A stretch of 64,000 bases of DNA from Spartobacteria bacterium (GTDB lineage: Bacteria > Verrucomicrobiota > Kiritimatiellia > RZYC01), in the NCBI GenBank assembly GCA_009929845.1, contig RZZM01000001.1:14166-78165 (forward strand). The letters run 5' to 3'. Position numbers and translations under genes: made by a program. This document shows, in pieces, positions 41,779 through 62,091 of this stretch; within the stretch, counting starts at the first letter, position 1, and every line of letters begins with the position of its first letter. A model generated the notes under the pieces. It ran no database searches and was not told the DNA's origin. It saw only the letters and a program-made list of their open reading frames with translations.

Positions 41779-44700
41779 GTGTGTATAGACATTTTGTCCG
41801 GCAAAGAAAAGAAAGGGCTTAACGTGAAAGCAAAGCTCAGACTGTGGTGTATGTGTCTGCTAATTGGAGGGGTGGTCGCGTCTGTCCCTGCATCCGCTGA
41901 GGTCATCCTTCAGGTGTTTAACAACACCTGGGCGGAGATCACGGAAAAAATTCCGGAATACGTCGAGGTGGGCTATACCGCCCTGTGGCTGCCTCCGCCC
42001 CAGAAGGCGGGCAGTATCTGGTCGGTGGGATATGACCTGTTTGATCCGTTTGATTTGGGCGGCATCGACCAGAACGGGTCCGTGAAGACACGCTACGGCA
42101 CGGAAGCCGAATTAAAGAATCTGATGGCGACGGCGCACCGTTTTGGATTGCGGGTATATTTTGACAACATCATGAATCACCGCGGGTATCACATTCCCGG
42201 CTACGATGCGAACACTCCGCTGGATGTCTACCCCGGCATGCTGCCGGAGGACTTTCACTTGCAGGTGACCCCGGAAGGATTCTACCGGGCCTGGCCGGAC
42301 ACCGTGAACTGGGGCAGCACCTGGGAGGTGCAGAATTACTGGCTTTCGGGGCTGATCGATATCTCCCACGAGGAACCCAACGCCAATTTCGGCCAGAACG
42401 CCGGCGACACCCACCCGCGCATCAAGTTCCTTCGTCATCCGAATAATCCGGAATTCTACGCCTACCTGCCGGATGATACCTACGTGGGGTTCAACAGCCC
42501 CCAGATAACAACCAATACCCTCGCGACCAATTCCTGGTATTACGAGGAGGATGTCGGCGCGTATCTGAACCGTTCTGTGCGCTGGCTGGTGAATGAAACA
42601 AAATGCGATGGACTGCGTCTGGATGCCGTGAAGCATGTGCCCGGCTATTTCTTCGGTGAGCAGTGGGCGGGGGACAAGGATTCCAGCGACGCCGGCTATT
42701 GTGGACAGGCCCAGGTGGAGTTCAATCTCTCGCGTGGCTTCAACGATTGGGACAATCACCGCGATACGGTGTTTGATACCGAGCTGGATTTCGGGCGCAA
42801 TGACCTGATGATTTTTGGTGAGCACATGGGCGAACCGCCACCGTACAGTGACTTCTGGGCGGCCGGCATGCGCCTGTTGGATGCGCGAACGCACTCGACA
42901 CTCAATGAACGCCTGGGGAATCCCTGGAGCAACCTGAATGGCCTGGACAGTGCGGATTACATTGATGGGGTTCAGATGGGGCAGCAATTGGGCATCTATT
43001 ATGCCAAAAGCCATGACGACGGGATCGCCAATCACGAGGAATTGCATTATGCGATCAATCTGACCCGCGCCGGATTACCGGATATCTATACCGACGGAAA
43101 CAGGCAGGCGGAAACACTCGGCGAAAGCGGCGGGGCCTTTCCCCGTCACGCCAATACCTGCTACCTCGGCCAGTGGGGGGATAGCCGCATTCCCAATCTG
43201 GTGTATATGCACAACCAATTTGCCCGTTCGTGGCAGTATCCCCGATTGTCTGATGACGATGTGGTGGCCTACGATCGCATTGATAAACGCGAGAACTCAG
43301 GGATGTCGGACGCTGATGCCTGCGTGATGTGTTTCATGTTGAATGACAATTACGCGGACGGGGCCTATCGCGAGGTCTCAACCGCGTTTCCTGAAGGGGC
43401 GTATCTATGGCAGTATGCCACAGGCGGCGGTAATTTTTACACGCAGGTCGACGGGGGTAAAATCAAGGTGATCATCCCCTCGGGCGGGTATTTTCTGTTT
43501 TCCTGGCGCAGTCCCGAAGAGTCGACCCTCTGGAGTTACGGCGGCGGCAACCCGTTGACGATTTATGAAAACGGAGAGGAATGCGGCTGGATGGGGTATT
43601 GGCGGTATGATGGGCCGGACGGCGATCCGAATTTCAATCCGTATGCGTCGGGTGTAACCACCAACTACGGATACAAATGGTGGGTGCCGCTGGTCACCTC
43701 CCGAACCAACCTGCGTTTCGCCACGCGCGTGGACGGCTCCGCCTATCATGTCATGTTCAAATTGGATGGCGGAATGGATTTGAACGGGGATGCGCACGCC
43801 CCCAGCGGCGACATGCGCGATCATCCACCGGGAAATGAAGGCAGTTACGATGTCTTTCTGGGGTACGAAGATGCTGATTTCGTGAAGCGTATCGGACCGG
43901 AGAAATTTGCGGACAGCGATACGTCCTCCAATACGATCGGTTCAGCGGGTAGCGGCAGCTATGAAATGACGATCGGATCGGACGGGGTGAATGTCAATCA
44001 CGGGAACGGCGCGAATGATTATGACAATACGCAGGGCGCTTCTTTTGTATACCATGACCCGACGGCCTCCACCGACTTTGGCGAAAGTCAGTTCTGGCCC
44101 CCGCCCAGCAATGCGGCCAATCAGGATTTGTGGATTCAGGTCAAGGTCGGTCAGGCGGGTGACATTAACCGGGTCTATCTCTACTATTCCATTGATGGCG
44201 AAACCTGGCCGGAAGGCGCCGGCGGTGAGGCGGTAGGCAACAATACCTATGTCACCGAGATGTATTGGACGACCAACTGGGTGGACGGGTCGGACACCAA
44301 CGACTGGTGGAAGTGCTCGATCCCCGGCGGCTTCCCGGCCGATACGGTGTTCCGGTACAAGATCGGCGCCTGCCGCGAACAGGGGTACGCAGGCGCGCCG
44401 TGGTATTGTCCGTTCCCCAATTCGGAATACGACATCGCCATGAAGACCCGCATGATGGGCCTCTGGGAAATCGACGACTTGAATGTAGATACCAATGTCT
44501 ATTATCAGCACAACGACTGGGGCAACGTCATTACCGGGCTGGTGGACGGCTTCCATGTCATTCGCTCGCGCGCCTTCCTGCAGCGGGAAACCCAGGCGCC
44601 CATCTACAACACCTTTACGCAGCCGTTCTATCTCGACGCCGAAACCGTGCAGGGCGAACTGATCTACCCGGCTGAAAACGATACCCTCTACAATAACGAA

Positions 44701-47700
44701 TATGGGTGCGTGCTGCGTACGGATTGGACCTGCAAAAAAGTATACTTCCATATTGAAGACAACGACCCTTCGAATGATGACGCCGCTACGGGTCGTACCC
44801 TGGGCAACGGCACGAACGCGGCGGGGGCCTGGGCCTGGGCGGAAGCCTCGGAAAATATCCCTGCCCTGAATATTGATTCTGTTTACCCCAAGGAATGGCG
44901 CTTTAACTACAGCAATATCCCATCGAACGGTGCTGCGGTTCTGTATATCAAGATGGCGGAATTGTCCTCCTCCACCAATTATCTGGATACGGCCGAGGAC
45001 GGACATTTCGGTGAAATCGTACGCAACCTGAACGCATCCGGCCCGGGCTATCGCATGTTTATGGCATGGCCACAGAATAACGGCGACACGGTCGGTGAAG
45101 GCTATGATATGAAGGTGCACTTCAGTTGGAACCTCTGGGAGGGCTTTGACGAGACCACCGTGAAAAATCGTTTCCTGATCACGATCGATGGCGAAACACA
45201 GGGGCGCGATAACTATTCCCTCTCCTGGGGCGGGGCCGGAGACTACCACGAGCTGGCCTATTCGTTGCCTGACCTCTATGACGGTTCTCCCGAAAACGTG
45301 CATGAGATTGTCGTCACCCACACCAATGCCGCGGGCAATGGCGTGACCCTGAACGCCGCCCGGGAGGTGCTGGCCTATCCCAGTTCGACGGGGCCCACCA
45401 TCCAGATCACCGATCCGCCCGAGTACGACAGCGACGGGGCGCGCTACCGGATCATTTTGCCGGATTTGGCGTCGCCCACACCGACTGATCGCATGTACCA
45501 GGTGTCTGTGCAAACGGACACGACGGTCAAGGACGTTTGGATTGATTTTACGAACAGCTCCACCGGGTATATCACGCCGGTGTCCGCCACCAATTACCTG
45601 ATGAGCAACGCCGTGACGGTCGTCAACGGCACCAACCTGGTGCTGGGCACAAACTTTAATTCGGTATTGTCCGCCGGGAACCGAATCCTCATCGCCTCCA
45701 ATGAGGTTACCGTTGCCACCATCCTCAACGACACCAACCTGCTGCTGCGCTTTAACTGGGACCAGGCCTCGGGCACCAACGTCGCCGCCTACCGCATCGG
45801 CGGAAATCCCACGGTCGAGGGCAGCGCGTATATCTGGAAGTTCTGGTGGACCAATATGACCAAAGGGTCCTACACCTTTGTCGCCAGCGCGACCACCAAT
45901 ACCGATACCTACAATGTGCATGCCGCCGCTACCCGTAATGCCACCGTGATCTTCCGCGAAATTGTCAATGCCTCCACCAATGATCTGGATGATGACGATG
46001 ACGGTCTCTTTGATGCTGATGAAACGACGTCCGTGGACTTACCCTCCTCCAATCCGGAATCCTGGACGAATGGCGTGGTGCATCAATGGTACTCCTTCGG
46101 AAAAACCGATCCGCTGATGCCCGACACCGATGGCGATGGGCTCCCCGACGCGCTCGAACTTGGCTTCCGCTATGCCTCGTCGTCCACCGATACCAACACC
46201 GATACCAACGGCGATGGCTATCCCAACTTCATCATCGACCTCGATCCGCCGATATATAATACGGTGCCCGATAACAGTGATATGCCCGGCTTCAACCTGA
46301 ATGCGTCCCGCACCTCGAAACTCATGGGGTCGACCACCGACCCCAATAATCCGGATTCCGATTATGATGGTCTTCCTGACGGCGTTGAAGACGCCAACCG
46401 CAACGGATGGGTCGACGGGGACCACGATGCCCTGCCGGTTGGTTATGAGCCCTGGGACGGATGGGATTATCCCCGGGGTGTCTGGTCGGCGTCCTGGACG
46501 GAAACTTCGCCCAACCTGGCGGATTCCGATGGCGACGGGCTCAGCGACGGATACGGCGAGGATGGCGACCTGAACGGGGCCATCGCCGGCGACATCAATT
46601 CCAATCGCGTCTATGACCCCGGGGAGCAGTGGACGGAAACCGATCCGTTGAACCCGGATACGGACGGTGACGGGCTGCCTGATGGTTGGGAAGTGACCTA
46701 CAGCCTGAGTCCGTGGGATGATGGGGTAATCGGGCATACCAATATGTACGACGGCTCCCTCATTACCACCAATACGCATGGACCGGACGGAAACCCCGAT
46801 GGGGATTATATTGTCGACGGCACCGTGACCAATCCGTATACCAATATCCGGGAATATGAAAATGGCACCAACCCACGCTATTTTGACCCCCTGGAGCCGC
46901 CGCCGGAAGGCAGCATTGTCATCGGCCCCGGTCCCTCGCTGGGCGAACTGACCGGCTTGGGCACGCAATATACCGAGTTCACCGACTGGACTGCCGACGA
47001 TGTGCTGGCCCTCGATGAATACGAAGGAGCGGGTAAAAATTCAGAAGGCGGTGACATCTATAGAAAGTGGGATGAATGGGACAGCTCCCGTGACCTTGTC
47101 GCGTTCTATGCCCGCGACGGTGGTTCCGATGTAAATGAATTCTATTTCCGTGTCGACTTGCATGATCTGAAGGCGCATGCGGAAGAGGGAAATGTGGATT
47201 TCTACGTGGTCATCGATACCGGCAATCCGTCCGTCGGCGAGATGGCCCTGCCGGACGAGGTGGACTGCACCACCTCCATGCGCTGGGAGGCGGTCGTTGC
47301 CGTGTATGATTCAGGAAACGGCGCGGTGTATGTCGATACCGACCGTGAGCACAACACGACGGCATCCTATCAGAACCTCTATGACTATGGGGTGGTGCGT
47401 CGCGATATGTCCGACCCGATGGGTTTTATCGAGGCCTACTTCAACTCCAGCCTCGACGCGGTCGAGTTTTCTATCCGCCGGTCCGGTCTCACCGATTCCA
47501 CATCCGGCGCCGGCTGGAACGGCCTGAACCCGGGCGACTTGAATTATCAGGTCTATTCGGTCGCGGATGGCACTTGTAATACATGCGGAGAAGAAGGGGG
47601 CGCTGGCGGGGGCGATATTGGTGGTCGTCCGGATATCCGGGACGCCATTTACAACGACTACATCGCCGAGGATTTCTGGAATGCGCAGGCGGGTTTGCCG

Positions 47701-50226
47701 CATGTGCTGATGTATTGGATCCCCGGTGACGCGGAGCCGAATCTCGCCAAGATATCCACCATCATCCACGGCAACCAGGCCGTTCAGCCGGGCAGTACGA
47801 TTCAGGCCCTGATCAACAACGGTGAGGGCGGGGGATACGGACGTCCTCTGGGTTCCCACGGGCTCTTCCAGGCACCCTTGAACCTACATGTCACGCCCAC
47901 CCTGGCCATGGCCATGGAATGGGCCAAAACCGACCCGGCCAATACCAACGACTGGCGCAAGACCAAATACGCCTCCGGCCCGCTCTTCAACGACTGGATC
48001 GCGGAACTGTATGCCACCAACCTGGTCTACCTGTTCGCCTCCACCTTCTCTGATCATATGATGCCGTATTTCACCGAGGCGTATAACAATGATAACATTG
48101 CGCTTGCCGAGCAGGTCCTGCATGAAATCTACGGATTCACCCCGGACTCGAATACCGTGTTCTGGACGCCCGAGCGCGTGCTCGATTCCGATACCTTCGG
48201 CAAAATTCTCAGCGCCGGCTACCGGCACACCTGTGTCGACCAGTTAACCCATATCTGGAACTGGTTCGGACGTGACGAAGCGCTGGGAACGCCCGGATAC
48301 CGTATCAATCAAATGGAAGACGTCGATTGTTTCGTTATCAATAATGGTCCCAGTGCCGTGATGTTTGAGAATTACGATGAAGGCCTGCCGATTGACCTGC
48401 GCAATCTGCTCATACGCAAGGGCCTCGAAGACACCACCAAAGACCAGTTGGTGAACCTCTTTATGCCCTGGGAGGACTACGCGGATACCGACAATGCGAA
48501 TGCCTACGATGTCAACCTGCGATGGATCGCCAATCACCCGTGGATTCAACCCGTCGGATTGGAAGAAATAGCCTCCGACCGTTCATTTGGCGGACATACC
48601 TGGTGGAGCGTCGAGCGCGGTTCTTCGCTTGCGCTTTCCAAGCAAAGTCATGTCTGGCTTAATCATGCCAGCGATGATGACTTCGATAACTGGTATCTTG
48701 GCGGTACCCTCCATGAGGGCCTCCAGGATAAATATTTTGACATCCGCCCCGGCGTGGCCATGACCAACAAGTACGGCATGCTGTACACCCCGGGCGTCGT
48801 CGCAGATGCATGGGACACGGTCGATGGACTTTCTGACCCCGACATCTCCGCGCTGGCGCGCGCCGCCCTGCACGCCTCCACCTTCGAGACCGCTTTCCAT
48901 AATGAAGATGAAAACGACCTTTCCCGCTGGTCAACCGGCGATTTCATCCATCCGGTCAGCAACTATTCTTCGTTGGCCACTTTCTCGAAGATTGCCCAGT
49001 CCCAGTCCCGCTTTGCCGCGGTCTATGACCGGGTCGACCAGTGGGCCGCCTCGGCGGCCTCGGTGACCACGCCACAGACCCAGGCCCTTGATGTGGACCT
49101 CGACGGCGAGCAGGAATATGTGATGTACAATGACCGTCTGTTTGTTCTGATCGAGCGGATCGGCGGGCGTGTGATCGGGGTCTGGGTCCGCGACATCCTC
49201 AACGCCGGGGTCTACCAGGCCGCCGGCAACCTGGTCAGTTACGCAGGCAGCGAGGACGAAACCGAAAACTACTATAATGCCGACACCAATGGCGTGGTCG
49301 GCGCCTACCGGACCTCCCTGCTCAAGGACTGGTGGGCGGACACCGCCGACTATATCAACGATATCTATACCGCTTCCCCGGTGGCCGGAGGGTGGCAGAT
49401 GACCTCATCGAACGGATGCATCCAGAAGACCCTCACCCTGGCGGAAAAGTCCTGGGAGATGGAAGTGGACTACGTTTTGTCCGGTGCGTTGGCGGGAACC
49501 ACGCTTTACATACGCAACGGGTTCTCCCCGCATCTCTATGATTTGCTGGTGGCCGGGCAGGGGACCCTGGGCGATCTGCAGGATGCCTCCGGCGTCCTTA
49601 CCCTGGAAAACACCAATTACAATACTACCGTGCTGACTACCATTGGCTATGCGGACGGCACGCACGCTGCAGGCTATGTTTCCACGGCTATCGATCAGCC
49701 GTCCTCCGGCGCCCAATTCCATACCATGAACATGCGCAACCAGGCGCAGACCCACCAGGTCGAGCTTTCCGGGTCCGCCAGCTTCTCCTTCTCGCTCGGG
49801 TTCCGCGCCCTGCCGTCCGACTGGAACCAGGACGGCATGCCCAACGACTGGGCGGACGAGTACGGACTGGGGACAAACGTCCAGGGCGGCGCCTCCCAGG
49901 ACGCTGATGGTGATGGCGTCATCAACAAGGATGAATATGTCGCCGGCACCAATCCGAATCAGGATACCGACTACCTTTATGTCTCCCAGACCGCCCCCAC
50001 CGGAACCGGCATCCGGGTACAGTTCCCGACCAAGGCCGGTCGCGACTACCGCATCTGGTACATGAATTCGTCCCTGCAAACGCCCAACTGGAGCAACGCC
50101 ACCCCGACGCTCATCAGCGGCACCGGCAGCACCTACGAATGGATCGACGACGGTTCCAATACCGACCCCAACCCCGCGGACACCACCAACCGCTTCTACA
50201 AAATCCAGGTCCAGTTGCCCCAATAA
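41779..50226 (+). CDS. Giant secreted multidomain glycoside hydrolase (2815 aa): GH13 alpha-amylase-family domain, beta-sandwich region, thrombospondin-type-3/EF-hand-like Ca-binding repeats, GH57-like domain, dockerin-like module and a C-terminal beta domain
   Basis: GH13 regions are GLRLDAVKHV (region II) and YAKSHDD (region IV). The Ca-binding repeats are DTDGDGLPDALE, DSDYDGLPDGVED, DSDGDGLSDGYGEDGD and DTDGDGLPDGWE. GH57-like motifs are IIHGNQAVQP, LNLHVTPTLAMAMEW and VFWTPERVL. A signal peptide probably begins at GTG 41824 (VKAKLRLWCMCLLIGGVVASVPASA). Confidence 0.85.
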   Translation: MCIDILSGKEKKGLNVKAKLRLWCMCLLIGGVVASVPASAEVILQVFNNTWAEITEKIPEYVEVGYTALWLPPPQKAGSIWSVGYDLFDPFDLGGIDQNGSVKTRYGTEAELKNLMATAHRFGLRVYFDNIMNHRGYHIPGYDANTPLDVYPGMLPEDFHLQVTPEGFYRAWPDTVNWGSTWEVQNYWLSGLIDISHEEPNANFGQNAGDTHPRIKFLRHPNNPEFYAYLPDDTYVGFNSPQITTNTLATNSWYYEEDVGAYLNRSVRWLVNETKCDGLRLDAVKHVPGYFFGEQWAGDKDSSDAGYCGQAQVEFNLSRGFNDWDNHRDTVFDTELDFGRNDLMIFGEHMGEPPPYSDFWAAGMRLLDARTHSTLNERLGNPWSNLNGLDSADYIDGVQMGQQLGIYYAKSHDDGIANHEELHYAINLTRAGLPDIYTDGNRQAETLGESGGAFPRHANTCYLGQWGDSRIPNLVYMHNQFARSWQYPRLSDDDVVAYDRIDKRENSGMSDADACVMCFMLNDNYADGAYREVSTAFPEGAYLWQYATGGGNFYTQVDGGKIKVIIPSGGYFLFSWRSPEESTLWSYGGGNPLTIYENGEECGWMGYWRYDGPDGDPNFNPYASGVTTNYGYKWWVPLVTSRTNLRFATRVDGSAYHVMFKLDGGMDLNGDAHAPSGDMRDHPPGNEGSYDVFLGYEDADFVKRIGPEKFADSDTSSNTIGSAGSGSYEMTIGSDGVNVNHGNGANDYDNTQGASFVYHDPTASTDFGESQFWPPPSNAANQDLWIQVKVGQAGDINRVYLYYSIDGETWPEGAGGEAVGNNTYVTEMYWTTNWVDGSDTNDWWKCSIPGGFPADTVFRYKIGACREQGYAGAPWYCPFPNSEYDIAMKTRMMGLWEIDDLNVDTNVYYQHNDWGNVITGLVDGFHVIRSRAFLQRETQAPIYNTFTQPFYLDAETVQGELIYPAENDTLYNNEYGCVLRTDWTCKKVYFHIEDNDPSNDDAATGRTLGNGTNAAGAWAWAEASENIPALNIDSVYPKEWRFNYSNIPSNGAAVLYIKMAELSSSTNYLDTAEDGHFGEIVRNLNASGPGYRMFMAWPQNNGDTVGEGYDMKVHFSWNLWEGFDETTVKNRFLITIDGETQGRDNYSLSWGGAGDYHELAYSLPDLYDGSPENVHEIVVTHTNAAGNGVTLNAAREVLAYPSSTGPTIQITDPPEYDSDGARYRIILPDLASPTPTDRMYQVSVQTDTTVKDVWIDFTNSSTGYITPVSATNYLMSNAVTVVNGTNLVLGTNFNSVLSAGNRILIASNEVTVATILNDTNLLLRFNWDQASGTNVAAYRIGGNPTVEGSAYIWKFWWTNMTKGSYTFVASATTNTDTYNVHAAATRNATVIFREIVNASTNDLDDDDDGLFDADETTSVDLPSSNPESWTNGVVHQWYSFGKTDPLMPDTDGDGLPDALELGFRYASSSTDTNTDTNGDGYPNFIIDLDPPIYNTVPDNSDMPGFNLNASRTSKLMGSTTDPNNPDSDYDGLPDGVEDANRNGWVDGDHDALPVGYEPWDGWDYPRGVWSASWTETSPNLADSDGDGLSDGYGEDGDLNGAIAGDINSNRVYDPGEQWTETDPLNPDTDGDGLPDGWEVTYSLSPWDDGVIGHTNMYDGSLITTNTHGPDGNPDGDYIVDGTVTNPYTNIREYENGTNPRYFDPLEPPPEGSIVIGPGPSLGELTGLGTQYTEFTDWTADDVLALDEYEGAGKNSEGGDIYRKWDEWDSSRDLVAFYARDGGSDVNEFYFRVDLHDLKAHAEEGNVDFYVVIDTGNPSVGEMALPDEVDCTTSMRWEAVVAVYDSGNGAVYVDTDREHNTTASYQNLYDYGVVRRDMSDPMGFIEAYFNSSLDAVEFSIRRSGLTDSTSGAGWNGLNPGDLNYQVYSVADGTCNTCGEEGGAGGGDIGGRPDIRDAIYNDYIAEDFWNAQAGLPHVLMYWIPGDAEPNLAKISTIIHGNQAVQPGSTIQALINNGEGGGYGRPLGSHGLFQAPLNLHVTPTLAMAMEWAKTDPANTNDWRKTKYASGPLFNDWIAELYATNLVYLFASTFSDHMMPYFTEAYNNDNIALAEQVLHEIYGFTPDSNTVFWTPERVLDSDTFGKILSAGYRHTCVDQLTHIWNWFGRDEALGTPGYRINQMEDVDCFVINNGPSAVMFENYDEGLPIDLRNLLIRKGLEDTTKDQLVNLFMPWEDYADTDNANAYDVNLRWIANHPWIQPVGLEEIASDRSFGGHTWWSVERGSSLALSKQSHVWLNHASDDDFDNWYLGGTLHEGLQDKYFDIRPGVAMTNKYGMLYTPGVVADAWDTVDGLSDPDISALARAALHASTFETAFHNEDENDLSRWSTGDFIHPVSNYSSLATFSKIAQSQSRFAAVYDRVDQWAASAASVTTPQTQALDVDLDGEQEYVMYNDRLFVLIERIGGRVIGVWVRDILNAGVYQAAGNLVSYAGSEDETENYYNADTNGVVGAYRTSLLKDWWADTADYINDIYTASPVAGGWQMTSSNGCIQKTLTLAEKSWEMEVDYVLSGALAGTTLYIRNGFSPHLYDLLVAGQGTLGDLQDASGVLTLENTNYNTTVLTTIGYADGTHAAGYVSTAIDQPSSGAQFHTMNMRNQAQTHQVELSGSASFSFSLGFRALPSDWNQDGMPNDWADEYGLGTNVQGGASQDADGDGVINKDEYVAGTNPNQDTDYLYVSQTAPTGTGIRVQFPTKAGRDYRIWYMNSSLQTPNWSNATPTLISGTGSTYEWIDDGSNTDPNPADTTNRFYKIQVQLPQ

Positions 50227-50632: not shown

Positions 50633-51289
50633 ATGAGAAACATAGTGTTGGGTTTGGTGAGTGTGGTGGTATGTGCGGCATGCGCGGCGCAAGGGGCGCT
50701 GATTTTTGAGGATAACTATGACAGCGAAGATACCGGGAGTGGCGTCGGGTATCCGGATGGATACAGCTTTTTTGGCACGGGCATTGATGACCGAGGCGTG
50801 ACCGCGCTGGAGTCTGTGTCCCCTGATAATTCAGGGTACCTTGCCCTGGACAACGGTGTAACGGCCTGGGGCGCCGGATGCTGGAAAGCGGCGGCCGGCG
50901 GGGCTGTTGATCTTACCGAAGGGTCGCTTTCGATCTACATGAAGCGCACCGCCGGGACAGCGGGCGGTGTGGCGTTCAAGGTATGGGACGGCGATGGCAA
51001 TGAGTATCGTACAGCGGACGAAGACCTCTTTTCCATCAGTACCGACTGGACGGAGTTCAGTCAGCCGCTTTCAGCGCTGACCCACCAGGATGCCGGCAGC
51101 GGCGCGCTGGATGCCGCTAACATTACGCAGTATGGACTGATTTTCTACAAGGCGGGCAGCGGAACAGACGCCATTACCTATTACTTTGACGATTACACCG
51201 GCAGTACCATCCCTGAGCCGGGCGTCGCTATGCTGTTGATCGGCGGGATAGGGACCTGCCTGTTCCTGCGCCGTCGGAAACGCGCCTAA
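50633..51289 (+). CDS. PEP-CTERM-anchored putative carbohydrate-binding (CBM-like beta-sandwich) protein
   Basis: It has a signal peptide (MRNIVLGLVSVVVCAACAAQG) and a Gly/Asp-rich beta domain. It ends with a canonical PEP-CTERM sorting signal: IPEPGVAMLLIGGIGTCLFLRRRKRA. Confidence 0.75.
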   Translation: MRNIVLGLVSVVVCAACAAQGALIFEDNYDSEDTGSGVGYPDGYSFFGTGIDDRGVTALESVSPDNSGYLALDNGVTAWGAGCWKAAAGGAVDLTEGSLSIYMKRTAGTAGGVAFKVWDGDGNEYRTADEDLFSISTDWTEFSQPLSALTHQDAGSGALDAANITQYGLIFYKAGSGTDAITYYFDDYTGSTIPEPGVAMLLIGGIGTCLFLRRRKRA

Positions 51290-52212
51290 AAGCTGTGTGT
51301 TTTTGTGAATTCGAGCACATCGGCAAGCTTGGCTTCGGCCATGGAAATGCAGGTGTCGGCGCAACCGTAATAGACCCGCAGGACGGTATTGTTTTCTTCC
51401 ATGGTCAGGGCGCTGGGAAAGACCACGTTGGGGACATCACCGACGCGTTCATAGGGCGCAGTGGGGTAGAGCAGATAGTCTTTCGTGCGGTGGATCACCT
51501 TCCAGGGCTCATCGAGATCGAGCAGCGCGGCGCCCATGGAATACAGGAAGCCGTTGCAGCTCATCCATACCCCGTGGTACAGGAGCAGCCAGCCCTCGGG
51601 GGTTTCGATGGGGTGGGGGCCGGGCCCGGTCTTCACCGACTGCCAGCCGGGTTTCGGGCCCAGCACAAAGCGATGCGTGCCCCAGTGCACAAGATCGGGG
51701 CTGGTGGCATAAAAGATATCCCCGAAGGAGGTGTGACCGCGGTCGCTGGGCCGATGCAGGATGGCGAACTTGCCATTGATCTTGCGGGGGAAGATTACGC
51801 AGTTACGGTTGGCGGGGGGCAATGGATTTTCCCATTGTTTATAGGTGTTGAAATCTTTGGTTGTGGCCAGGCCGATGCAGGGGCCCTGTCCGTCTGAATT
51901 GCACCAGGTGATGTAGTAGGTGTCGTCCATCCTGGTGATCCGCGGGTCATAACTGTAATGGGTCATGAAAATATCGGGATCGTCGCTTTGCATCCGGATG
52001 CGCTCGGGCTCAATCGTCCAGTGGATACCGTCCGGGCTTTCACCGTAGTGCAGTGTGTATTCCATGCTGATTTCATCGATGCGAAAAATGCCCCGGTAGC
52101 CGTTGGCTTCTTTCACAATGGCGCTGTTGTGAATGCTGTTGGCGCGGGGGACGGCGCTTGGGGTGACAATGGGATTGCCTTCGTAGCGTTTAAATACGGT
52201 TTCATTGGCCAT
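51286..52212 (-). CDS. Glycoside hydrolase family 130 (beta-mannoside phosphorylase-like)
   Basis: A 308-aa protein with the GH130 pattern (NPIV, HYSYDPRI, ILHRPSD, GWLLLYHGV). Confidence 0.78.
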   Translation of the reverse strand: MANETVFKRYEGNPIVTPSAVPRANSIHNSAIVKEANGYRGIFRIDEISMEYTLHYGESPDGIHWTIEPERIRMQSDDPDIFMTHYSYDPRITRMDDTYYITWCNSDGQGPCIGLATTKDFNTYKQWENPLPPANRNCVIFPRKINGKFAILHRPSDRGHTSFGDIFYATSPDLVHWGTHRFVLGPKPGWQSVKTGPGPHPIETPEGWLLLYHGVWMSCNGFLYSMGAALLDLDEPWKVIHRTKDYLLYPTAPYERVGDVPNVVFPSALTMEENNTVLRVYYGCADTCISMAEAKLADVLEFTKTHSF

Positions 52213-55204
52213 GGTCGGTTCCTTTCATGTGATGCTGTGGACTAATAAGGGTTGCCTCGCCCCATTGGCGGGCGTCATATTCTTCGGTGCCCAGCCAGAG
52301 CAGGTGCTGCCACTGGTTCCCTTCACGCTCCGGGTCCGCATCGCAATTCGATACGTTCAATCCGATGACGTGCGGGTTTTCAACGGGGGCGCTTCCTCGC
52401 AGGAAATCAAGCGGAATCGCCGCCTCAATGTAATACCCTTCGGGGGTGATCGAGGAGGCGGCCGTTATATTGGTCAGGCTCTTGTTGTTGTAGAGGGGGT
52501 GCCGGTAGACGACGTTATCGACGCGGCCGGGGGTGTCGATGGATGGCGCCAGGTTGATCTGCCAGCATCCGGGATTGTGCGGCATATTGTTGAAAAAGTC
52601 GGCGTCGTGGCGCGCGTCAATCCACAGCTCTATACAATCGTCTTTCCAAAGGTCCGGGCCGGCCTTGTGTCGGCGCGCCACCTGATTGTCGTTGACGGCG
52701 GCGGCAATGTAGAGGGTGTCCGCATTGTAGTGCGCCAACCAAAACGTCATACCGTTGTCATTCCCTTTTTCTTTGCCGCTGAGGGTGTAGGACGGGATGT
52801 CCTCCCATGACTTGGGTTGGCCGTCCGGTTTGAAGGGCGCCGTAAGGGCCGGAATCGCCATGCTCTTTTTCGCTTCAATCCGCTGTGTGGGATCCCAGGC
52901 GGACAGGATGATTTCCGGCGTGCCCTCCGGTGGGGTGCTCGCTGTGTCGTCGCGGATAAGCCGGATGGCCGTATCCGGTCCGGCGGACGCATAGGGCAGC
53001 ACGGCTTGCCGATTGGAAACAGTGACGGTCTCTTTGGAGAATACCGTTCCTTCATAGGTATTCCATTGTTCATAGACCCATGCGCCGTCGCTGATATTGG
53101 TAATCGTAAGCGCTCCCTTGAATGCCTGTGGCGCCAGGGGCGGATGGCCGGACCACGGAAGGCGGGATGGATCGTACAGCCAGAGGTTCACACGGTCCGT
53201 TCCGCACAGGCCCATGACATGCAATTCGACGCCCGTTTCACAGACGGTTTTGCCGGTCTTCAGTTCCCAGGCGCCGTCGCGGCGGTCCAGGCCTTCCCCA
53301 AAGCGGCTCAGGGCGGCATAGTGATAGTACAGTTGATTCGGGTCGATGAGGTCATACCACCACCAGCTCATCGCGTTGCCGCCTTCCGGCAGCATGAAAG
53401 CGGCCCAGATCGTCGCATGGATAAACTGCCCGGTGAGGTCTTCGCCATCGACCCCGTCGTCGGTGTTGCGTCCGAATTCGGCCACAAAATGGGGTTTGTT
53501 TAGTTCCTTGTAGGGCGGGTACATCGAGGCCAGGTACGAGATGATGTCTTCGGTGTAGACATGGGATTGTGTGTAGTCGATTTCAGGGAGTGAGAACACT
53601 TCGACATTGGGTGTGGTGATGTAGCTGGTGGTGACCATATGGCCGTGCGGGTCCGTCTGTTTGATGTATTGCGCCATCTCCCGGTGCCAGGCGGTATCGT
53701 GGACCATGTTGAAATTGTCCGACAAGTCGACCTCGTTGAACAGCTCCCATGCCATCAGGTTGGGGGAATGGCCGTACCTGGCGATAATGTAGCGGATACG
53801 ATGGCGGGTAAGGCGTTTGGCCTCTTCATTATAGAAGAACGATTCAGGGGTTTCGCAGGGCCCGCCATTCGCGCTGTTGAGGGGATTGTTTTGCCACTCC
53901 GGGTTGGTGTTTGCGCTCACGCGGCAGTGTTCGTGAAGGACCAGTTGCAGGTAGAGGTCGTTTTCCTCCGCGCAGGCCATGATCTGGTCAAGTTTCTCCG
54001 CATGGCGCAGGTTGTAAAGGCCAAGGCCCTCGTAATCGCGAATGCCCTCCATCCACTCCAGTTCACAATTCCAGGGGGCGATCCATATCCGTGACCAGTT
54101 TTCGCCGTGCGCGTGCATGGCGGCAAATTGCTCGCGATATTCGGCAAGGCTGTTCCAGCAGACGTTGTGACCCAGCGCATAGTAGAAGCGCTCGTCCGCC
54201 AATTCGAAATAGGCCGGGTGGGCCGTGCAGACGCGCGGAAAGCCGCGCGGTTCGGCGGGGGCGACCACCAACGGGGTAACCTCGGTTTCGATGGTTTTCC
54301 CAGGGGTACGGGCGAAGAGTTTCCACTGCCACTCGCCAGCCTCTTTCGGGGTAAAACGGATCCGCCACTGGTCATAGGGATGCGATTCCGTGGCCCAGGC
54401 ATAAAGAAAGCCGGGACAGGTTACCTGGCGTCCGGAGGGGGCAAGCAGAACAACTTCCACGGATAGTTCATCCGGGTCAAACGGGTTCGTTGCCACGATC
54501 GCCAGGTCGGCCGAGATTTCGAGCATCCGGTAGCAGGCGGGCTGTTCGGTAAGCAATTCAACGTGCTGGAACGAGAGGGGGGCCACAATACGCGACGCCC
54601 GCTTTTCTTGCGCGATAGTGTCGGTGAGTGTCATGTCTATGATGTCCATTTGATACGATGCTCCTGACTCGGGGTAGAGGACCAGTTCCAGTGAAGTAAC
54701 GGGGGCTTCCATGCGCACAGCGTCTTCGTGCCGCCAGGAGGAGGTGGCGCTTTTATACTGTGGTTCCGAAAGCGCAAAGACGTGCGAGGTGATCGTATGC
54801 GCGGGGAGGGTTATGCGCGGTCCCTCATAAAATTGATCGGTGCGTAGGGCGGGGGCGAGCGTCACAGGCTGTTCGAAGGTTTCGACTGTCAGCGTGAGCG
54901 TCGATGACGGGGACAGGTGACGACCGGAAACGGCGGTCCCGATGATCGTGCCCTTTTGCGCCTCGCCTTCGGGGCCCTCAATATCAATGTTAAGGCGTTC
55001 CGGTTCGACGGGGGTGAGGACCGGGGTCGCGGAATCACCCTGCCAGACCAGCGACCAGGCGGCGGCCGGGGGAGAAAAACTCGATAACGTCGTCATCCCA
55101 TCGGCCTGTTCCACGATTTCCACGGCGGCCGCAGCAAGACAATACGCAAAAAAACAGAGCATCAATTGCGCAAATAAACGGACCGGAAGCCAGTATACCT
55201 TCAT
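52202..55204 (-). CDS. Secreted GH5-family (clan GH-A TIM-barrel) glycoside hydrolase with a C-terminal CBM9-like sugar-binding domain
   Basis: It has a signal peptide (MKVYWLPVRLFAQLMLCFFAYCLAAAAV) and the acid/base motif AWELFNEV. The C-terminal TFWLAHYNADTLYIAAAVND...DDCIELWIDARHD resembles family-9 CBM. Confidence 0.65.
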   Translation of the reverse strand: MKVYWLPVRLFAQLMLCFFAYCLAAAAVEIVEQADGMTTLSSFSPPAAAWSLVWQGDSATPVLTPVEPERLNIDIEGPEGEAQKGTIIGTAVSGRHLSPSSTLTLTVETFEQPVTLAPALRTDQFYEGPRITLPAHTITSHVFALSEPQYKSATSSWRHEDAVRMEAPVTSLELVLYPESGASYQMDIIDMTLTDTIAQEKRASRIVAPLSFQHVELLTEQPACYRMLEISADLAIVATNPFDPDELSVEVVLLAPSGRQVTCPGFLYAWATESHPYDQWRIRFTPKEAGEWQWKLFARTPGKTIETEVTPLVVAPAEPRGFPRVCTAHPAYFELADERFYYALGHNVCWNSLAEYREQFAAMHAHGENWSRIWIAPWNCELEWMEGIRDYEGLGLYNLRHAEKLDQIMACAEENDLYLQLVLHEHCRVSANTNPEWQNNPLNSANGGPCETPESFFYNEEAKRLTRHRIRYIIARYGHSPNLMAWELFNEVDLSDNFNMVHDTAWHREMAQYIKQTDPHGHMVTTSYITTPNVEVFSLPEIDYTQSHVYTEDIISYLASMYPPYKELNKPHFVAEFGRNTDDGVDGEDLTGQFIHATIWAAFMLPEGGNAMSWWWYDLIDPNQLYYHYAALSRFGEGLDRRDGAWELKTGKTVCETGVELHVMGLCGTDRVNLWLYDPSRLPWSGHPPLAPQAFKGALTITNISDGAWVYEQWNTYEGTVFSKETVTVSNRQAVLPYASAGPDTAIRLIRDDTASTPPEGTPEIILSAWDPTQRIEAKKSMAIPALTAPFKPDGQPKSWEDIPSYTLSGKEKGNDNGMTFWLAHYNADTLYIAAAVNDNQVARRHKAGPDLWKDDCIELWIDARHDADFFNNMPHNPGCWQINLAPSIDTPGRVDNVVYRHPLYNNKSLTNITAASSITPEGYYIEAAIPLDFLRGSAPVENPHVIGLNVSNCDADPEREGNQWQHLLWLGTEEYDARQWGEATLISPQHHMKGTDHGQ

Positions 55205-55508
55205 GATTTTCGCTTGTTTAGTGGTCATTGCATTCATATACATCTTGCCGTATATCCCTTTGAAATTGCCATAATATATTTTTTTCATGTGCACCGCTAG
55301 CCGCTTATCACACAACGCAAACGTTTGCATTTATCTGAAAATACGGCGTGGGGTGGATTTTGTAAAGAGGTTTTTCCGCATTATTTGCGGATAATTCAGG
55401 CCTGTTTTATGATTGATGGCACCTTTTTGCTGTGGTAACCTTTTCCCGAGGTTTCGGAACAAGCGTAACCTGCTGTTGTCGGCGGGATAGAACGAACGGA
55501 GCGATGCG

Positions 55509-58500
55509 ATGATTGAGCTAAAAGACGGTTTTCGGCGGTTTCGTGGATTGATTCTGTTTTTCTTGACGGGAGGACTCCTGCTTGCATCGGCTTTCCTGTA
55601 CGCCCTGCAGGCCGCCCCGGTGCCCGATGCGCCCGCTCCGGTTTTCCTTGATATCCCCACCAACGATGTGCAGTACGGCTTTGAGCCCGACCGGCAGGGT
55701 TGGCGCAATGTCGCATACACCGACCCCGGTGATTATCACAATTCCCTCACGGGTATCGTGAACGCTACCCGGTCTTCGCTCTATGCGGCCGAAGGAAGTA
55801 ATTCACTGGAACTGGATGTGCGGATTATCAATGAAACAACAAACCGCCAAAAGGGCGCGGTGGCTGTCGATATGACCTGGTATCCGCCGCCTTCGCTCCG
55901 TGCCCCGTTCAACCTGGACGGCACAAACATCCATGCCTACCTGTACTGTCCCGTCGGCAGCGCCGCCACCAACCCGCTCTCGCCCAACCTGGCCCAGATA
56001 TATGTCAAGAGCCGCCAGGATGAATTTACCTGGCCGGCCCAGTACGGCGCGGCGGCAACAATGGTCGAGGATAGCTGGGTCGAACTGCAATTGACCCCCT
56101 CGACCAATACGCCCCCCGGCGGGTACACGCAACCGGGCTTCGACCCGCGGGCCATCCTCGAAATGGGCATATCCATTGAGATGTCGGGCATCTATACGGG
56201 CGCGCTTTTCCTGGACGGAATCCGGTTTGACGTGGGGCCGGACCCGCGCCTGACCAATTCGCAGCATATTTACTCTTTCGACACCGCCGACCAACAGGCC
56301 TGGTGGCGCTGGGGCGTTAACGCGGAGGGGCATCACGCCAAGGCCTGGACCCATGTGTACTATGCGACCAACGACCTCACCGAGGGCCGTCCGGCTTTGG
56401 CGGCCCAGGCGTCCTTCCGTACAAACGACAGCGCCGAAGTGGTCACCAACCAGTCCGGACAGGTCATAACCAATGAATACGTGTTTCAAAAGGGCAATTT
56501 CGAAATTGCCTACGAACCGTCCCTGAACCTGAGCACCAAGGACAACCGGATGTGCCAGGCGCGCCTGCGGTTCGATCCGCCGGTCGAGGGGCTCCTTTCG
56601 TTCGAGGCGTCCCTGCAACTGTATGACAAGATCACGGACCAGTGGTACTACCAGGTTTATCCCGTCGGTGGCAGCGGCTGGAATATCCTGAACTGGAACC
56701 TGGATGATCCGGACGACTATGCCACCAACCGGGTAACCAATCCGTCTCCCCCCGGACCGATGGACGCCTCCGCGATCGGCTTTGCCGCTATCCAGTTGTT
56801 TGCCAATGTGTCATGGACCGGCACCGTTTACCTGGAGGAGGTCGTGCTGGGCGGCGTCGAGACCGGCACGAATTACCAGCGTATAACCAGCGGCTTCGTG
56901 CACCCCGCCGGGCATAAATATGTCCTGGACGGTTCCAACTTTTATCACTGCGGCGCGAATATTGAGTATCTTCAGACCGTGCCGGACGCCGTGGTTGAGG
57001 AGTGCCTTGACTGGTGTACCAACATGGGCATCGACGTGGTCCGCACCTGGGCCATGCAGGAGGGACAGCCGTACAGCTTCCAGCCGGAGCGCGGGGTCTG
57101 GAATGAATTGATGTTTGAACATTTGGACCGCATCGTGGCCATGGCCGGCGACCGCGGAATCCGCCTGATGCTGGATGTGCTGGATAACTGGGCGCATAAT
57201 GGCGGGGTCTTCCAGTATGTGCATTGGGTCACCCGGGAGCATCCGGAAACAGTGAACACCAATCTCGACCCGGAAGGGGTCGCCTATCATGACCAGTTCT
57301 GGACCAATACCTATTGCCAGCAGTGGTACAAGGATTATGTGGAGCGCCTGCTGCGGCGCACCAACACCATCACCGGCGTGCAGTATAAGGATGACCCGAC
57401 CATCTTCACGTGGGAAATAGTCAATGAGCCGCGCTGTGAATCCGATTTTGACGGCAGCACGATTCATGATTGGCTCCATGAAATGAGTGACTGGATTCGG
57501 ACCATCGATACCAATCACATGCTCGGGCCCGGCGAGGAGGGCGGGTATGTACGCACCTATGCCGACGCCGACAAGGTCGGCTGGGAGGTCTATCCGGCCA
57601 ATTATTATCACTATGGGGTCTATGGCACCGGCAGCGCGACCTGCGATGTGTACGGGTGCGGCCGGGGGCATGGCGTGGACTTTATCAGCGATATGAGCAG
57701 CGTTTCCAATTATGTCATGTGGCAGGATGGCGGTTGGTCCAATACGGACTATCATCCGCCGGAAGGGGAATGGCGCAGTGGAAATTCCAATATCCATTTC
57801 TGCACAATTCGACTTTATATCGACCAGAAGGAATACAATCTCTGGCGCACCAATTTCAATGACGCCGATCAGCGCCTTGAATGGATCAATGACCACTGGT
57901 ATGAGTCGCACCGCGTCATCGGCAAACCCATGTTGCTCGAAGAGTTCGGCATCCACGCGGTCGGCTGGGTGTTCAACGGGTCCTACGGGCAGGTGCAACT
58001 GGTGCCGTCACCCAAGTATGATATCCAGGACCGTGTCGACTTGTATGATAAGTACTACTGGCACATTGAAAATTGCGGTATCCCCGGTTCCTATTTCTGG
58101 AACTTCGGATACGAGGGCATGTGGAACGATCCGTTCCACCGCTGCGAAGAGCTCGCGCCGTGGTACGCCTACACAGCCCAGTGGTCGGCGGTCTCCGTGG
58201 CCCTCGATACCAACTATGCGATGCAGGGCGCCAATTGCCTGCAACTGAATTTTGACGTGCAGGACCCCGGGGAAAACCGGGCGGTCTTCATCTGTCCCAC
58301 CAATGAGATGTGGGTGCTGCGCGTGGACCCGGATTCCACCAACGATCCCCCCACCCGCGGGGTCAACCGGGTCAAGTTTTTCTGGAATGTGCTGAGTCCC
58401 ACCCAGGAGGTGTATGTCGCTATCGGCCTGCGAGGCACGGCCAGCAATTACCTGGCCGAGTCCGTGGCACAGCGCGTGCCCGCCGGGGCCTGGACAAACC

Positions 58501-59474
58501 TGATGTTTGACCTCAGCGCGGGGACCTGGGCCTGGGAGGGCAACGGATGGAGCCATACCGACTATCTCATTCACATCACCAACAGCGCCACGGGCACAAA
58601 CATCCTGGCGGATGTCAGGGAGGTGAATGTGGTGGTCTATGACCTGGCCATGGGCGCCGGCGCGGTCTACCTGGATGATATCCAGATCAAGCGCGATGAC
58701 GGGTTTGTCGTGTACCGGGACGACCCCGTTTGCGCGGTCATCCAGGCCCACGCGGAACGTATGGCGGATTGGAACATGCCCACCAACCGCCCCAATATCT
58801 CTCCCGTCGCGCCTTCACTCCTGGTGGATGTGCGCGCCTTTACGGCCACAAATATCAACCTGACGGCCACGGATGCGGACGGCGACAGACTCAGTTATCG
58901 CTTCATGTCCATGCCCACCAACGGCTGGGTGTTCGGCTCCCCGCCCTCCAATGTCCTGTACAAAACCTTTCCGGGCACACCGGCCTTACAGGATGAATTC
59001 ACCTATGTGGCCTATGACGGGTTGGCCGACAGCCTGACAGCCACCGTACGCCTCGTGGTAACCGATGGCGATGTGGACGCGGACGCGCTCCCGGATAGCT
59101 GGGAATATGATTTCTTCCCCAAACGTGTGCAGTGGTGGCCGGACTGCGACCAGGACATGCTCACCAACATGTATACCGCCTGGGACTGGGACCGGGACGG
59201 ATGCACGGACTGGGACGAGTACCGGGCCGGGACGGACCCCACCAATGCATCGTCGCTGTTTACGATTCTGCAGCAAGTGCAAACACAGGCGGCATACGCT
59301 GTATACTGGTCGAGTGTGGACGGCAAAGCATACGTGGTGGAACGTGCAACCAACCTTGTTGAGGGCTTTGTTTCCCTGGTGACCAATGTGGCAGTCCCTC
59401 CGATGAACAGCTACACGGATGAAACCGGCGCGGCGTCAAGCGCCTGTTTTTACCGCATTCGCCTGGGTGACTAA
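55509..59474 (+). CDS. Giant secreted GH5 beta-mannanase-like protein (1321 aa) with a C-terminal dockerin-like module and terminal beta domain
   Basis: It has a signal/TM (LILFFLTGGLLLASAFLYALQA). The GH5 mannanase-type acid/base motif is FTWEIVNEPRCE, with the nucleophile region MLLEEFG. The C-terminus matches that of the 2815-aa protein. Confidence 0.72.
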   Translation: MIELKDGFRRFRGLILFFLTGGLLLASAFLYALQAAPVPDAPAPVFLDIPTNDVQYGFEPDRQGWRNVAYTDPGDYHNSLTGIVNATRSSLYAAEGSNSLELDVRIINETTNRQKGAVAVDMTWYPPPSLRAPFNLDGTNIHAYLYCPVGSAATNPLSPNLAQIYVKSRQDEFTWPAQYGAAATMVEDSWVELQLTPSTNTPPGGYTQPGFDPRAILEMGISIEMSGIYTGALFLDGIRFDVGPDPRLTNSQHIYSFDTADQQAWWRWGVNAEGHHAKAWTHVYYATNDLTEGRPALAAQASFRTNDSAEVVTNQSGQVITNEYVFQKGNFEIAYEPSLNLSTKDNRMCQARLRFDPPVEGLLSFEASLQLYDKITDQWYYQVYPVGGSGWNILNWNLDDPDDYATNRVTNPSPPGPMDASAIGFAAIQLFANVSWTGTVYLEEVVLGGVETGTNYQRITSGFVHPAGHKYVLDGSNFYHCGANIEYLQTVPDAVVEECLDWCTNMGIDVVRTWAMQEGQPYSFQPERGVWNELMFEHLDRIVAMAGDRGIRLMLDVLDNWAHNGGVFQYVHWVTREHPETVNTNLDPEGVAYHDQFWTNTYCQQWYKDYVERLLRRTNTITGVQYKDDPTIFTWEIVNEPRCESDFDGSTIHDWLHEMSDWIRTIDTNHMLGPGEEGGYVRTYADADKVGWEVYPANYYHYGVYGTGSATCDVYGCGRGHGVDFISDMSSVSNYVMWQDGGWSNTDYHPPEGEWRSGNSNIHFCTIRLYIDQKEYNLWRTNFNDADQRLEWINDHWYESHRVIGKPMLLEEFGIHAVGWVFNGSYGQVQLVPSPKYDIQDRVDLYDKYYWHIENCGIPGSYFWNFGYEGMWNDPFHRCEELAPWYAYTAQWSAVSVALDTNYAMQGANCLQLNFDVQDPGENRAVFICPTNEMWVLRVDPDSTNDPPTRGVNRVKFFWNVLSPTQEVYVAIGLRGTASNYLAESVAQRVPAGAWTNLMFDLSAGTWAWEGNGWSHTDYLIHITNSATGTNILADVREVNVVVYDLAMGAGAVYLDDIQIKRDDGFVVYRDDPVCAVIQAHAERMADWNMPTNRPNISPVAPSLLVDVRAFTATNINLTATDADGDRLSYRFMSMPTNGWVFGSPPSNVLYKTFPGTPALQDEFTYVAYDGLADSLTATVRLVVTDGDVDADALPDSWEYDFFPKRVQWWPDCDQDMLTNMYTAWDWDRDGCTDWDEYRAGTDPTNASSLFTILQQVQTQAAYAVYWSSVDGKAYVVERATNLVEGFVSLVTNVAVPPMNSYTDETGAASSACFYRIRLGD

Positions 59475-59647
59475 AATCAGAACTCCTTTGGAAACATAGA
59501 CTGATACCCAAGCGGGAGGTCGCTGTCCGTAACGACTGGATTATCCAACCATTTTTCAGATTCAACAGAACGCTTCCTGATTCACCAGGTATTGAGGACC
59601 ATGTCCCTCCATCCACAATCCCTGCGGAGCAGCCTCTGGCACGATCG

Positions 59648-61498: not shown

Positions 61499-62091
61499 TT
61501 CGAATCATCCTCGCCGACGACCACCAGCTTTTTCTCGAAGGCCTCCAGCGGTTATTCAGCGATCAACCGGATATACAGCTTGAAGGCTTCGCCCGCACCG
61601 GACGGGAAGCGCTGGCGCTCATCGAAGCGCGAAAACCGGACATCGTCGTGCTCGACATCGACATGCCCGACATGGACGCCTTCACCATCGCCAACCGGCT
61701 GGCCGGCGCCGGCGATCCTCCGCGTATCATCCTGCTCAGCATGCACAACGAGACCGCCTACCTGTTAGCGGCTTCACGCCCCGACATACAGGGCTATGTC
61801 CTCAAAGATGCCGCCTTCGACGACCTCATACATGCCGTGCACGAGGTCCATGCCGGAAGACGTTACATGAGCGCAGGCATCGCCGACGATGCCGTCGGCA
61901 GCCGTTCTCCGTTGACACCGCGCGAACAGGAGGTGCTCCGCTACGCGGCCGCCGGTCTGACCACCCGCCAGACCGCCGATCAACTCGGTCTGAGTGCCAA
62001 AACCATCGAAACCCACCGCACCAACATTATACGAAAACTGGATGTCGCCAACATCACGGAGGCCGTCCACATCACGATGCGTTTGCGATAA
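61480..62091 (+). CDS. NarL/FixJ-family response regulator (REC + LuxR-type HTH)
   Basis: IRIILADDHQLF, an acidic pocket VVLDIDMPD and a LuxR HTH (LTPREQEVLRYAAAGLTTRQTADQLGLSAKTIETHR). Confidence 0.85.
   Translation: MAPHQLIRIILADDHQLFLEGLQRLFSDQPDIQLEGFARTGREALALIEARKPDIVVLDIDMPDMDAFTIANRLAGAGDPPRIILLSMHNETAYLLAASRPDIQGYVLKDAAFDDLIHAVHEVHAGRRYMSAGIADDAVGSRSPLTPREQEVLRYAAAGLTTRQTADQLGLSAKTIETHRTNIIRKLDVANITEAVHITMRLR

Follow-up and report, generated by a model that had tools for sequence, protein, structure and literature searches.

The stretch of DNA analysed here, referred to as the window, comprises 64,000 nucleotides of contig RZZM01000001.1 (forward strand, positions 14,166 to 78,165) from a Spartobacteria bacterium assembly (GCA_009929845.1), and it encodes two large proteins, carriers 1 and 2, that end in related tails. 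Carrier 1 (41779-50226, + strand) is a secreted multidomain giant whose open reading frame (ORF) starts with a signal peptide and a glycoside hydrolase family 13 (GH13) alpha-amylase domain; its length varies with the start codon, being 2815 residues from a GTG and 2791 residues in the public gene call. Carrier 2 (55509-59474, + strand) is an ORF for a secreted GH5 endo-beta-mannanase of 1321 residues. The tails correspond to the final 149 codons of each gene, found at 49777-50226 for carrier 1, with a TAA stop at 50224-50226, and at 59025-59474 for carrier 2, with a TAA stop at 59472-59474.

A first-pass annotation of the window, made from the DNA alone, had proposed that the two tails share a C-terminal module, and this proposal holds. 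When the tails are aligned directly, BLASTP returns an E-value of 4e-7 with 30% identity over 87 residues, an alignment that spans both calcium loops and the first three strands of the domain that follows. A hidden Markov model (HMM) of the whole module was derived from 119 metagenomic homologues, neither window sequence being included so as to avoid circularity. It matches carrier 1 with 112 bits (E=6e-34) and carrier 2 with 53 bits (E=9e-16), the latter in a single alignment extending from loop 1 as far as the terminal FYRI. The two tails are therefore confirmed as one shared module of about 130 residues, in which two DxDxDG-type calcium loops are followed by a fibronectin type III (FN3)-like beta domain. 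No further copy was found in any other ORF when the HMM was run against all 540 ORFs of the window. An HMM of the beta domain only, also made without the window sequences, detects carrier 1 (E=2e-11) and misses carrier 2, and hence module 2 represents a divergent subtype.

In module 1 the first calcium loop and the short helix that follows it (DWNQDGMPNDWADEYGL) are located at 49819-49869 (+ strand), where the loop falls in the columns that the family conserves as DxDxDG-[IL]-P-D-x-W-E and the AlphaFold model places the helix at module residues 12-17. The second loop and its short helix (DADGDGVINKDEYVAGTNP), a bacterial TSP3 repeat with weak matches to Pfam TSP3_bac and EF-hand, are found at 49900-49956 (+ strand); within an alignment of 121 sequences, D31, D33, D35, E42 and T47 of this loop are invariant. 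The FN3-like beta sandwich occupies 49957-50223 (+ strand) and ends in FYKIQVQLPQ, with 0 residues left before the stop codon. The two loops of module 2 (DVDADALPDSWEYDFF ... DWDRDGCTDWDEYRAGTDP) lie at 59070-59240 (+ strand; HMM positions 71-128, from a profile without the window sequences) and are separated by a 22-residue insert. The first of them reads DVDADALPDSWE, with an alanine replacing the usual glycine, and begins two residues ahead of the stretch quoted in the first-pass annotation. The divergent FN3-like domain of module 2 (59241-59471, + strand) ends in FYRIRLGD at the stop codon, and the whole-module HMM reaches its FYR. Taken together, the modules follow the pattern D-x-[DN]-x-D-[GA]-[LM]-P-[DN]-x-W-[EA] in loop 1 and D-x-D-x-D-G-x-x-[DN]-x-x-E-Y-x-A-G-T-[DN]-P in loop 2, whilst the third part consists of about 80 beta-rich residues with F-Y-[KR]-I at the end.

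The AlphaFold2 model of module 1, calculated from the 121-sequence alignment, has a pLDDT of 88.6 and a pTM of 0.72 and contains the loops and the sandwich together. A helix of 6-7 residues follows each loop (residues 12-17 and 39-45) and there are seven beta segments, the last of which is FYKIQVQ. The model of module 2, which was guided by the family alignment, is of lower quality (pLDDT 79.3) and has six strands. The predicted structure of the beta domain is thus that of a seven-stranded beta sandwich of the FN3 type, as had been suggested from the sequence, although the further suggestion that the last strand is missing is not borne out, since FY(K/R)I forms the last strand in the models. 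Across the family this strand has the form N-R-F-Y-R-[VLI] and closes the protein. Foldseek searches with the beta domain gave no specific fold match and returned generic FN3 structures only.

The identity of the loops bears directly on what the module might do, since the first-pass annotation had regarded them as dockerin-like and had envisaged a cohesin-bearing scaffold that would gather the enzymes into a cellulosome-like complex. There is some resemblance to a type I dockerin (PF00404), a module with two DxDxDG-type calcium loops and their helices that secreted enzymes usually have at their C-terminus; in the model of module 1 each loop is likewise followed by a short helix, and both carriers in the window are polysaccharide-degrading enzymes. 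However, whilst Pfam PF18884 (TSP3_bac) is matched by 14 of 14 mainstream members of the family, with a best E-value of 5e-13, Dockerin_1 is not reported for the window modules at E<=10 or for the 14 mainstream members at E<=1. On their own the window modules fall below the threshold for TSP3_bac, with 13 bits against a cut-off of 25, and their loops align column-for-column with the TSP3 loops of the family in a profile from which the window sequences had been left out. The loops are bacterial TSP3 repeats of the PF18884 type rather than dockerin, with the signatures D-x-D-x-D-G-[IL]-P-D-x-W-E and D-x-D-G-D-G-x-x-N-x-x-E-Y-x-A-G-T-D-P. When all PDB chains were searched with the family profile, the matches at E<=1 were to EF-hand proteins, Bap and C2 toxin, and to none of the many dockerin chains.

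A dockerin is a stand-alone three-helix module with two duplicated segments of about 22 residues, each comprising a calcium loop and an alpha-helix. The model of module 1 agrees with this layout in part, with a loop and a short helix seen twice, but each helix spans no more than 6-7 residues and neither segment duplicates the other. The loops are also predicted together with, and fused to, a beta sandwich, a domain that dockerins do not possess. No cohesin was found among the annotated genes of the window or among the recurrent neighbours of carriers at 42 loci, and most carriers are not carbohydrate-active enzymes (CAZymes). The reading of the two segments as calcium loops is retained from the earlier proposal and their dockerin type is not; a cohesin-based assembly is very improbable, and the profile and PDB sequence searches essentially exclude it. 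A type I dockerin acts as a non-covalent assembly or anchoring module, and a comparable anchoring role is considered for the module below.

TSP3_bac repeats are known from extracellular or envelope proteins, such as OmpA-like proteins, the Myxococcus proteins CglD and MtsD and carbohydrases of Saccharophagus degradans, and they bind calcium. The N-terminal half of the module is a pair of these repeats and is likewise predicted to bind calcium. The known TSP3 arrays are internal and lack a domain of this kind, whereas in the module exactly two repeats, or sometimes one, are locked to a terminal FN3-like domain. In the secreted carbohydrases of S. degradans, for instance, TSP3 repeats have been noted and no terminal domain has been described (PMC2386152). 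The top NCBIfam matches (the Amuc_1099 family, MtsD and CglD) similarly cover the TSP3 pair only and lie far below their cut-offs. The best of them for both window modules is the Amuc_1099 family, NF042425 (E=7.6e-8 and 1.4e-5), a family from the same phylum that shares the TSP3 loop pair. Amuc_1099 itself is an uncharacterised protein encoded in the Akkermansia MUL2 type IV pilus-like locus, which is thought to mediate surface attachment (PMC13174399). The window modules fall outside this family, as they score 25-32 bits against a cut-off of 50 and align over 48-50 positions that lie within positions 106-160 of 321, corresponding to the TSP3 pair; the beta domain is unmatched, and both the architecture and the genomic context are different.

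The beta domain has no specific match in Pfam, NCBIfam or the PDB sequences. The fn3 profile (PF00041) gives no match, whether to the window modules at E<=10 or to the 14 mainstream members at E<=1, and a direct search of the PDB sequences with module 1 gave matches at chance level only (GH71, E=0.025). The models for the C-terminal domain (CTD) of the type IX secretion system (T9SS), TIGR04183 and PF18962, are also without a match among the window modules and the 14 mainstream members (NCBIfam at E<=1, Pfam at E<=10). The prediction that no described sorting domain would account for the module is therefore borne out by the Pfam and NCBIfam profile searches, and full-text searches of the open-access literature yielded no prior description of it.

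Two further classes of export signal were considered and set aside. PEP-CTERM and the other short '-CTERM' signals, associated with exosortase, archaeosortase, rhombosortase and LPXTG, have no NCBIfam match and the tails contain no hydrophobic C-terminal helix; the C-termini of the modules (...NRFYKIQVQLPQ and ...ACFYRIRLGD) are a beta strand. An analogy to the type I secretion system and its RTX proteins is ruled out, as the carriers have Sec signal peptides and are without GGxGxD repeats.

The module is not confined to the window, and the expectation that further carriers would exist has been amply satisfied by profile searches. In a word-indexed protein collection 849 matches were obtained at E<=1e-3; the best 120 of these, all shorter than 250 residues and many of them apparently fragments from short contigs, nearly all have a C-terminus of the form ...DPxWTTNRFYR[VL]xTPxQP. 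A scan of GTDB with one genome per species, for which 14 closer sequences served as the query, gave more than 305 related stretches, from which 80 loci were kept. Across these loci the whole-module matches come almost entirely from records labelled Verrucomicrobiota, Kiritimatiellia, Lentisphaeraceae or 'PVC group' (Planctomycetes, Verrucomicrobia and Chlamydiae), the groups within the Verrucomicrobiota being Chthoniobacterales/Spartobacteria, Limisphaerales, Verrucomicrobiales and Akkermansiaceae. Matches in other phyla involve the TSP3 part only, with one weak exception outside the PVC labels in a Limnocylindrales record (L077, beta-domain E=0.022). The carriers at the GTDB loci range from about 170 to 2,650 residues. 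Several may occur in one genome or contig, as with the two in the window and the two loci that come from each of two metagenome-assembled genomes (MAGs), and adjacent genes are frequently both carriers (in tandem in L040, L044, L056, L058 and L063, and at weaker E-values in L037 and L046).

Within its carriers the module is found predominantly at the extreme C-terminus. When the beta-only HMM was applied to the fetched proteins, 131 of 136 domain matches ended within 4 residues of the C-terminus, and at the GTDB loci 50 of 54 beta-domain matches ended within 7 residues of the stop codon. At the N-terminus, a classical Sec signal peptide is present in most complete carriers. The proteins to which the module is attached are otherwise unrelated to each other. 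The commonest are secreted proteins of 1,800-2,650 residues that form a conserved family and contain 4-8 Lamin-tail (LTD) domains together with a CotH kinase-like domain, CHB_HEX_C/Fn3_assoc domains and immunoglobulin (Ig) repeats (for example in L002, L014, L020 and L023, with carrier ORFs ending at about 10384). Other passengers, as assigned by Pfam, include Ig_3, GH44, Peptidase_S8 with PPC (a subtilase), FG-GAP, NHL and DUF11 with Golvesin_C, to which can be added an MtrC-like multihaem cytochrome, a sialidase-like SASA+BNR protein (sialate O-acetylesterase), three alpha-amylases and several proteins without a Pfam domain. Because the passengers are unrelated and the LTD/CotH/Ig giants are the commonest, the module is not a CAZyme-specific feature, which leaves the CAZyme-specific part of the first-pass annotation without support, given also the protease, cytochrome and FG-GAP carriers.

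The cytochrome is a 757-residue MtrC/MtrF-like multihaem protein with a Big_9 domain and the module, encoded at L039:6962-9232, in which the beta-domain match is weak (E=0.0017). Its sequence suggests that extracellular electron-transfer proteins of this uncultured Verrucomicrobiota MAG may use the module as a tag too.

It could be argued that the module has no targeting role and serves as a stabilising cap or spacer, or as a carbohydrate-binding module (CBM)-like domain that holds carbohydrate or another substrate, at the terminus of large extracellular proteins. Both TSP3 repeats and FN3-like domains are, after all, frequently used as spacers or structural elements in the extracellular proteins of bacteria, as the Saccharophagus carbohydrases with their TSP3 repeats illustrate (PMC2386152), carrier 1 itself has internal TSP3 loops, and tandem copies of the module do occur. 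A spacer would be expected to be internal, yet more than 90% of the copies are terminal, and the module is conserved across orders although the passengers are unrelated. A CBM would be expected to follow the CAZymes, yet the module is also present on proteases, a multihaem cytochrome and CotH/LTD proteins, so that a substrate-binding role is disfavoured by the non-CAZyme carriers. An account of this kind is on the whole unlikely.

With a Sec signal, an arbitrary passenger, a small terminal domain, one lineage and several carriers per genome, the tail is probably an undescribed tag of the PVC lineage, by which Sec-exported proteins are targeted to the cell surface or envelope, and not a dockerin. 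The first-pass annotation had raised both sorting or display and the assembly of CAZyme complexes. The extreme C-terminal position, the Sec signals and the unrelated passengers lend circumstantial support to the former, and the latter is not sustained. The novelty is a matter of combination, in that known building blocks (TSP3 repeats and an FN3-like fold) are put to a known use (a C-terminal tag) in a lineage for which no such tag has been described.

The closest precedent for such a tag is the T9SS CTD of the Bacteroidota (TIGR04183 / Por_Secre_tail), which is an Ig/FN3-like beta sandwich of about 80 residues at the extreme C-terminus of Sec-exported proteins. As with the module, it is attached to diverse passengers, often of great size and with many glycoside hydrolases and proteases among them, is confined to one lineage, and has many carriers per genome. 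The module has the terminal beta sandwich, the Sec export and the diverse cargo of a T9SS-type CTD, a correspondence to be read as functional analogy only. It differs from the CTD in that it has no sequence or profile similarity to it and no specific fold match, and in having an obligatory TSP3 loop pair ahead of the sandwich, in being sometimes tandem or internal, and in its occurrence in PVC lineages.

The same precedent raises the possibility that the beta domain is a true secretion or sorting signal, read by a dedicated outer-membrane machinery for translocation and attachment. Cleavage of the module might in that case follow, with a covalent anchor taking its place, as occurs with the T9SS CTD and the PorU/PorV system of the Bacteroidota. 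The logic of T9SS cargo, in which a Sec signal is combined with varied, often giant passengers and with a terminal beta sandwich of about 80 residues within one bacterial group, speaks for such a signal, as does the strong conservation of the terminal NRFYR[VL]xTPxQP in the mainstream family. None of the T9SS machinery (PorK/L/M/N, Sov, PorU/V) is present in the window. A dedicated signal of this type is the main rival reading and has a modest but appreciable chance of being correct. In its most far-reaching form, the tail would be the address label of a sorting or surface-attachment system shared by Verrucomicrobiota, Kiritimatiellia and Lentisphaerae, a PVC counterpart of the Bacteroidota T9SS CTD pathway. 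A machinery that recognises NRFYR[VL]xTPxQP would in this view serve for the export or attachment of giant enzymes by the hundred, of CotH/LTD adhesin-like proteins and even of multihaem cytochromes; this we regard as rather doubtful.

The mechanism that is preferred, albeit tentatively and with slightly less than even confidence, is a calcium-stabilised, non-covalent retention at the cell surface. The passenger and its module would be exported by Sec and then cross the outer membrane, probably by a general type II route. After this passage the module would fold around Ca2+ and hold the passenger at the surface by binding non-covalently to a component of the envelope, which would be either a surface polysaccharide or a protein of the outer membrane. 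In this way a large enzyme, the amylase or the mannanase for instance, would stay beside the cell that produces it, and the mode of action would resemble that of an anchoring module or of a T9SS CTD and not that of a cohesin-dockerin pair. Non-covalent retention is preferred because of the calcium loops and because the tandem and internal copies behave like binding modules. The clearest case is P0247, a metagenomic protein of 440 residues that contains three complete modules in tandem, joined by linkers of 4-5 residues and each ending in RFYRxVTPxQP, a triplication that shows the module to be an autonomous, self-contained unit of the kind that binding modules represent and more than a terminal signal. 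The module is also a detachable accessory, since two orthologues of the mannanase are without it.

Several observations weigh against a role in targeting. Rare internal copies are found in L018, L059 and P0144, which together with the tandem arrangement of P0247 mean that a free C-terminus is not strictly required; these copies are, however, easier to reconcile with a binding module than with a cleaved signal. An all-against-all BLAST comparison of the ORFs at 42 carrier loci revealed no conserved neighbour gene, as the only ORFs to recur were those of the carriers and shadow ORFs. An exhaustive search of representative sequences with the whole-module profile gave counts of 86,899, of 38,854 and, at E<=1e-30, of 5,055 matches, all of which are inflated by proteins with multiple TSP3 repeats and are unusable as a measure of family size. 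The restriction to one lineage is based on taxon labels taken from the titles of MAG records, and the beta part of module 2 is weakly supported when taken alone. Finally, we infer the function from architecture alone.

Members of the Verrucomicrobiota and Kiritimatiellota play a major part in degrading complex polysaccharides, whether in soil, in water or in guts, and very large secreted enzymes are encoded in their genomes. In this context the module provides a marker with which the surface or secreted proteome of these mostly uncultured phyla could be predicted, and a starting point in the search for an anchoring ligand or a sorting machinery. A new curated domain family could be based on it, as the current Pfam and NCBIfam models annotate the TSP3 loops only, and its recognition sets right the labelling of these tails as dockerin or EF-hand, a tempting mistake.

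The two carriers differ in what precedes the module. In carrier 1 the N-terminus resembles a signal peptide (...LLIGGVVASVPASA/EV) and is followed by the GH13 domain, which is recognised by the Pfam Alpha-amylase model (E=2.7e-13) and by the corresponding NCBIfam model (E=8e-33). At residues 1404-1643 (45988-46707, + strand) regular expression and HMM matches reveal an internal array with four or more TSP3-type calcium loops; there is a match to Pfam TSP3_bac at residues 1627-1641 and a CglD-like NCBIfam match at residues 1392-1547 (E=1e-18). No beta domain follows this array. There is a weak GH57-like stretch at residues 2074-2163 (E=0.0014), and some 2,000 residues of the protein are without a domain assignment. 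Orthologues of carrier 1 form one cluster from four Verrucomicrobiota loci (L044, L056, L058 and L063), where the terminal module is matched in L056, L058 and L063 and not in L044 (2112-5810).

Carrier 2 has a hydrophobic N-terminus and its GH5 identity, as originally assigned, is upheld by a match to the beta-mannanase of PDB entry 9m20 (E=1e-47) and by the presence of the NEP and EEFG motifs. A Big_9 Ig-like domain precedes the module. Orthologues of the mannanase share 46-76% identity, and most of them have the module subtype of carrier 2, ending in YR[IV]xV[EQ]. In two of them, P0290 and P0292, a single TSP3 loop is retained ahead of the beta domain. The two orthologues without the module, P0286 and P0287 (about 2017 residues), have at their C-terminus a second copy of a domain like the N-terminal region of the family (...YLDYVTFTRNP).

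Carrier 2 is encoded within what appears to be a mannan-utilisation cluster (51286-62091). Between the genes for the two carriers are those for a GH130 beta-1,4-mannooligosaccharide phosphorylase (51286-52212, - strand) and a protein of 1042 residues with GH5, DUF5060 and CBM9 domains and without the module (52202-55330, - strand), whilst the 3' side of carrier 2 is occupied by a HisKA_3 histidine kinase and a LuxR-type response regulator (59648-62091, + strand). LpxC and upp are encoded on the 5' side of the carrier region. The remainder of the window is ordinary chromosome, with exopolysaccharide (EPS)-type glycosyltransferases, a tyrosine autokinase, prfB and trpB. Within it, the stretch from about 4646 to 31128 resembles a surface-polysaccharide and signalling region, where a flippase-like protein, an HDIG response regulator, histidine kinases and a protein with a clan AA aspartic protease domain are encoded. 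A GT4 glycosyltransferase from this stretch is similar to the glycosyltransferases of PEP-CTERM/XrtA systems, with a match below the cut-off, and the tyrosine autokinase (27728-29695), which belongs to the polysaccharide-biosynthesis type, is located in the same region.

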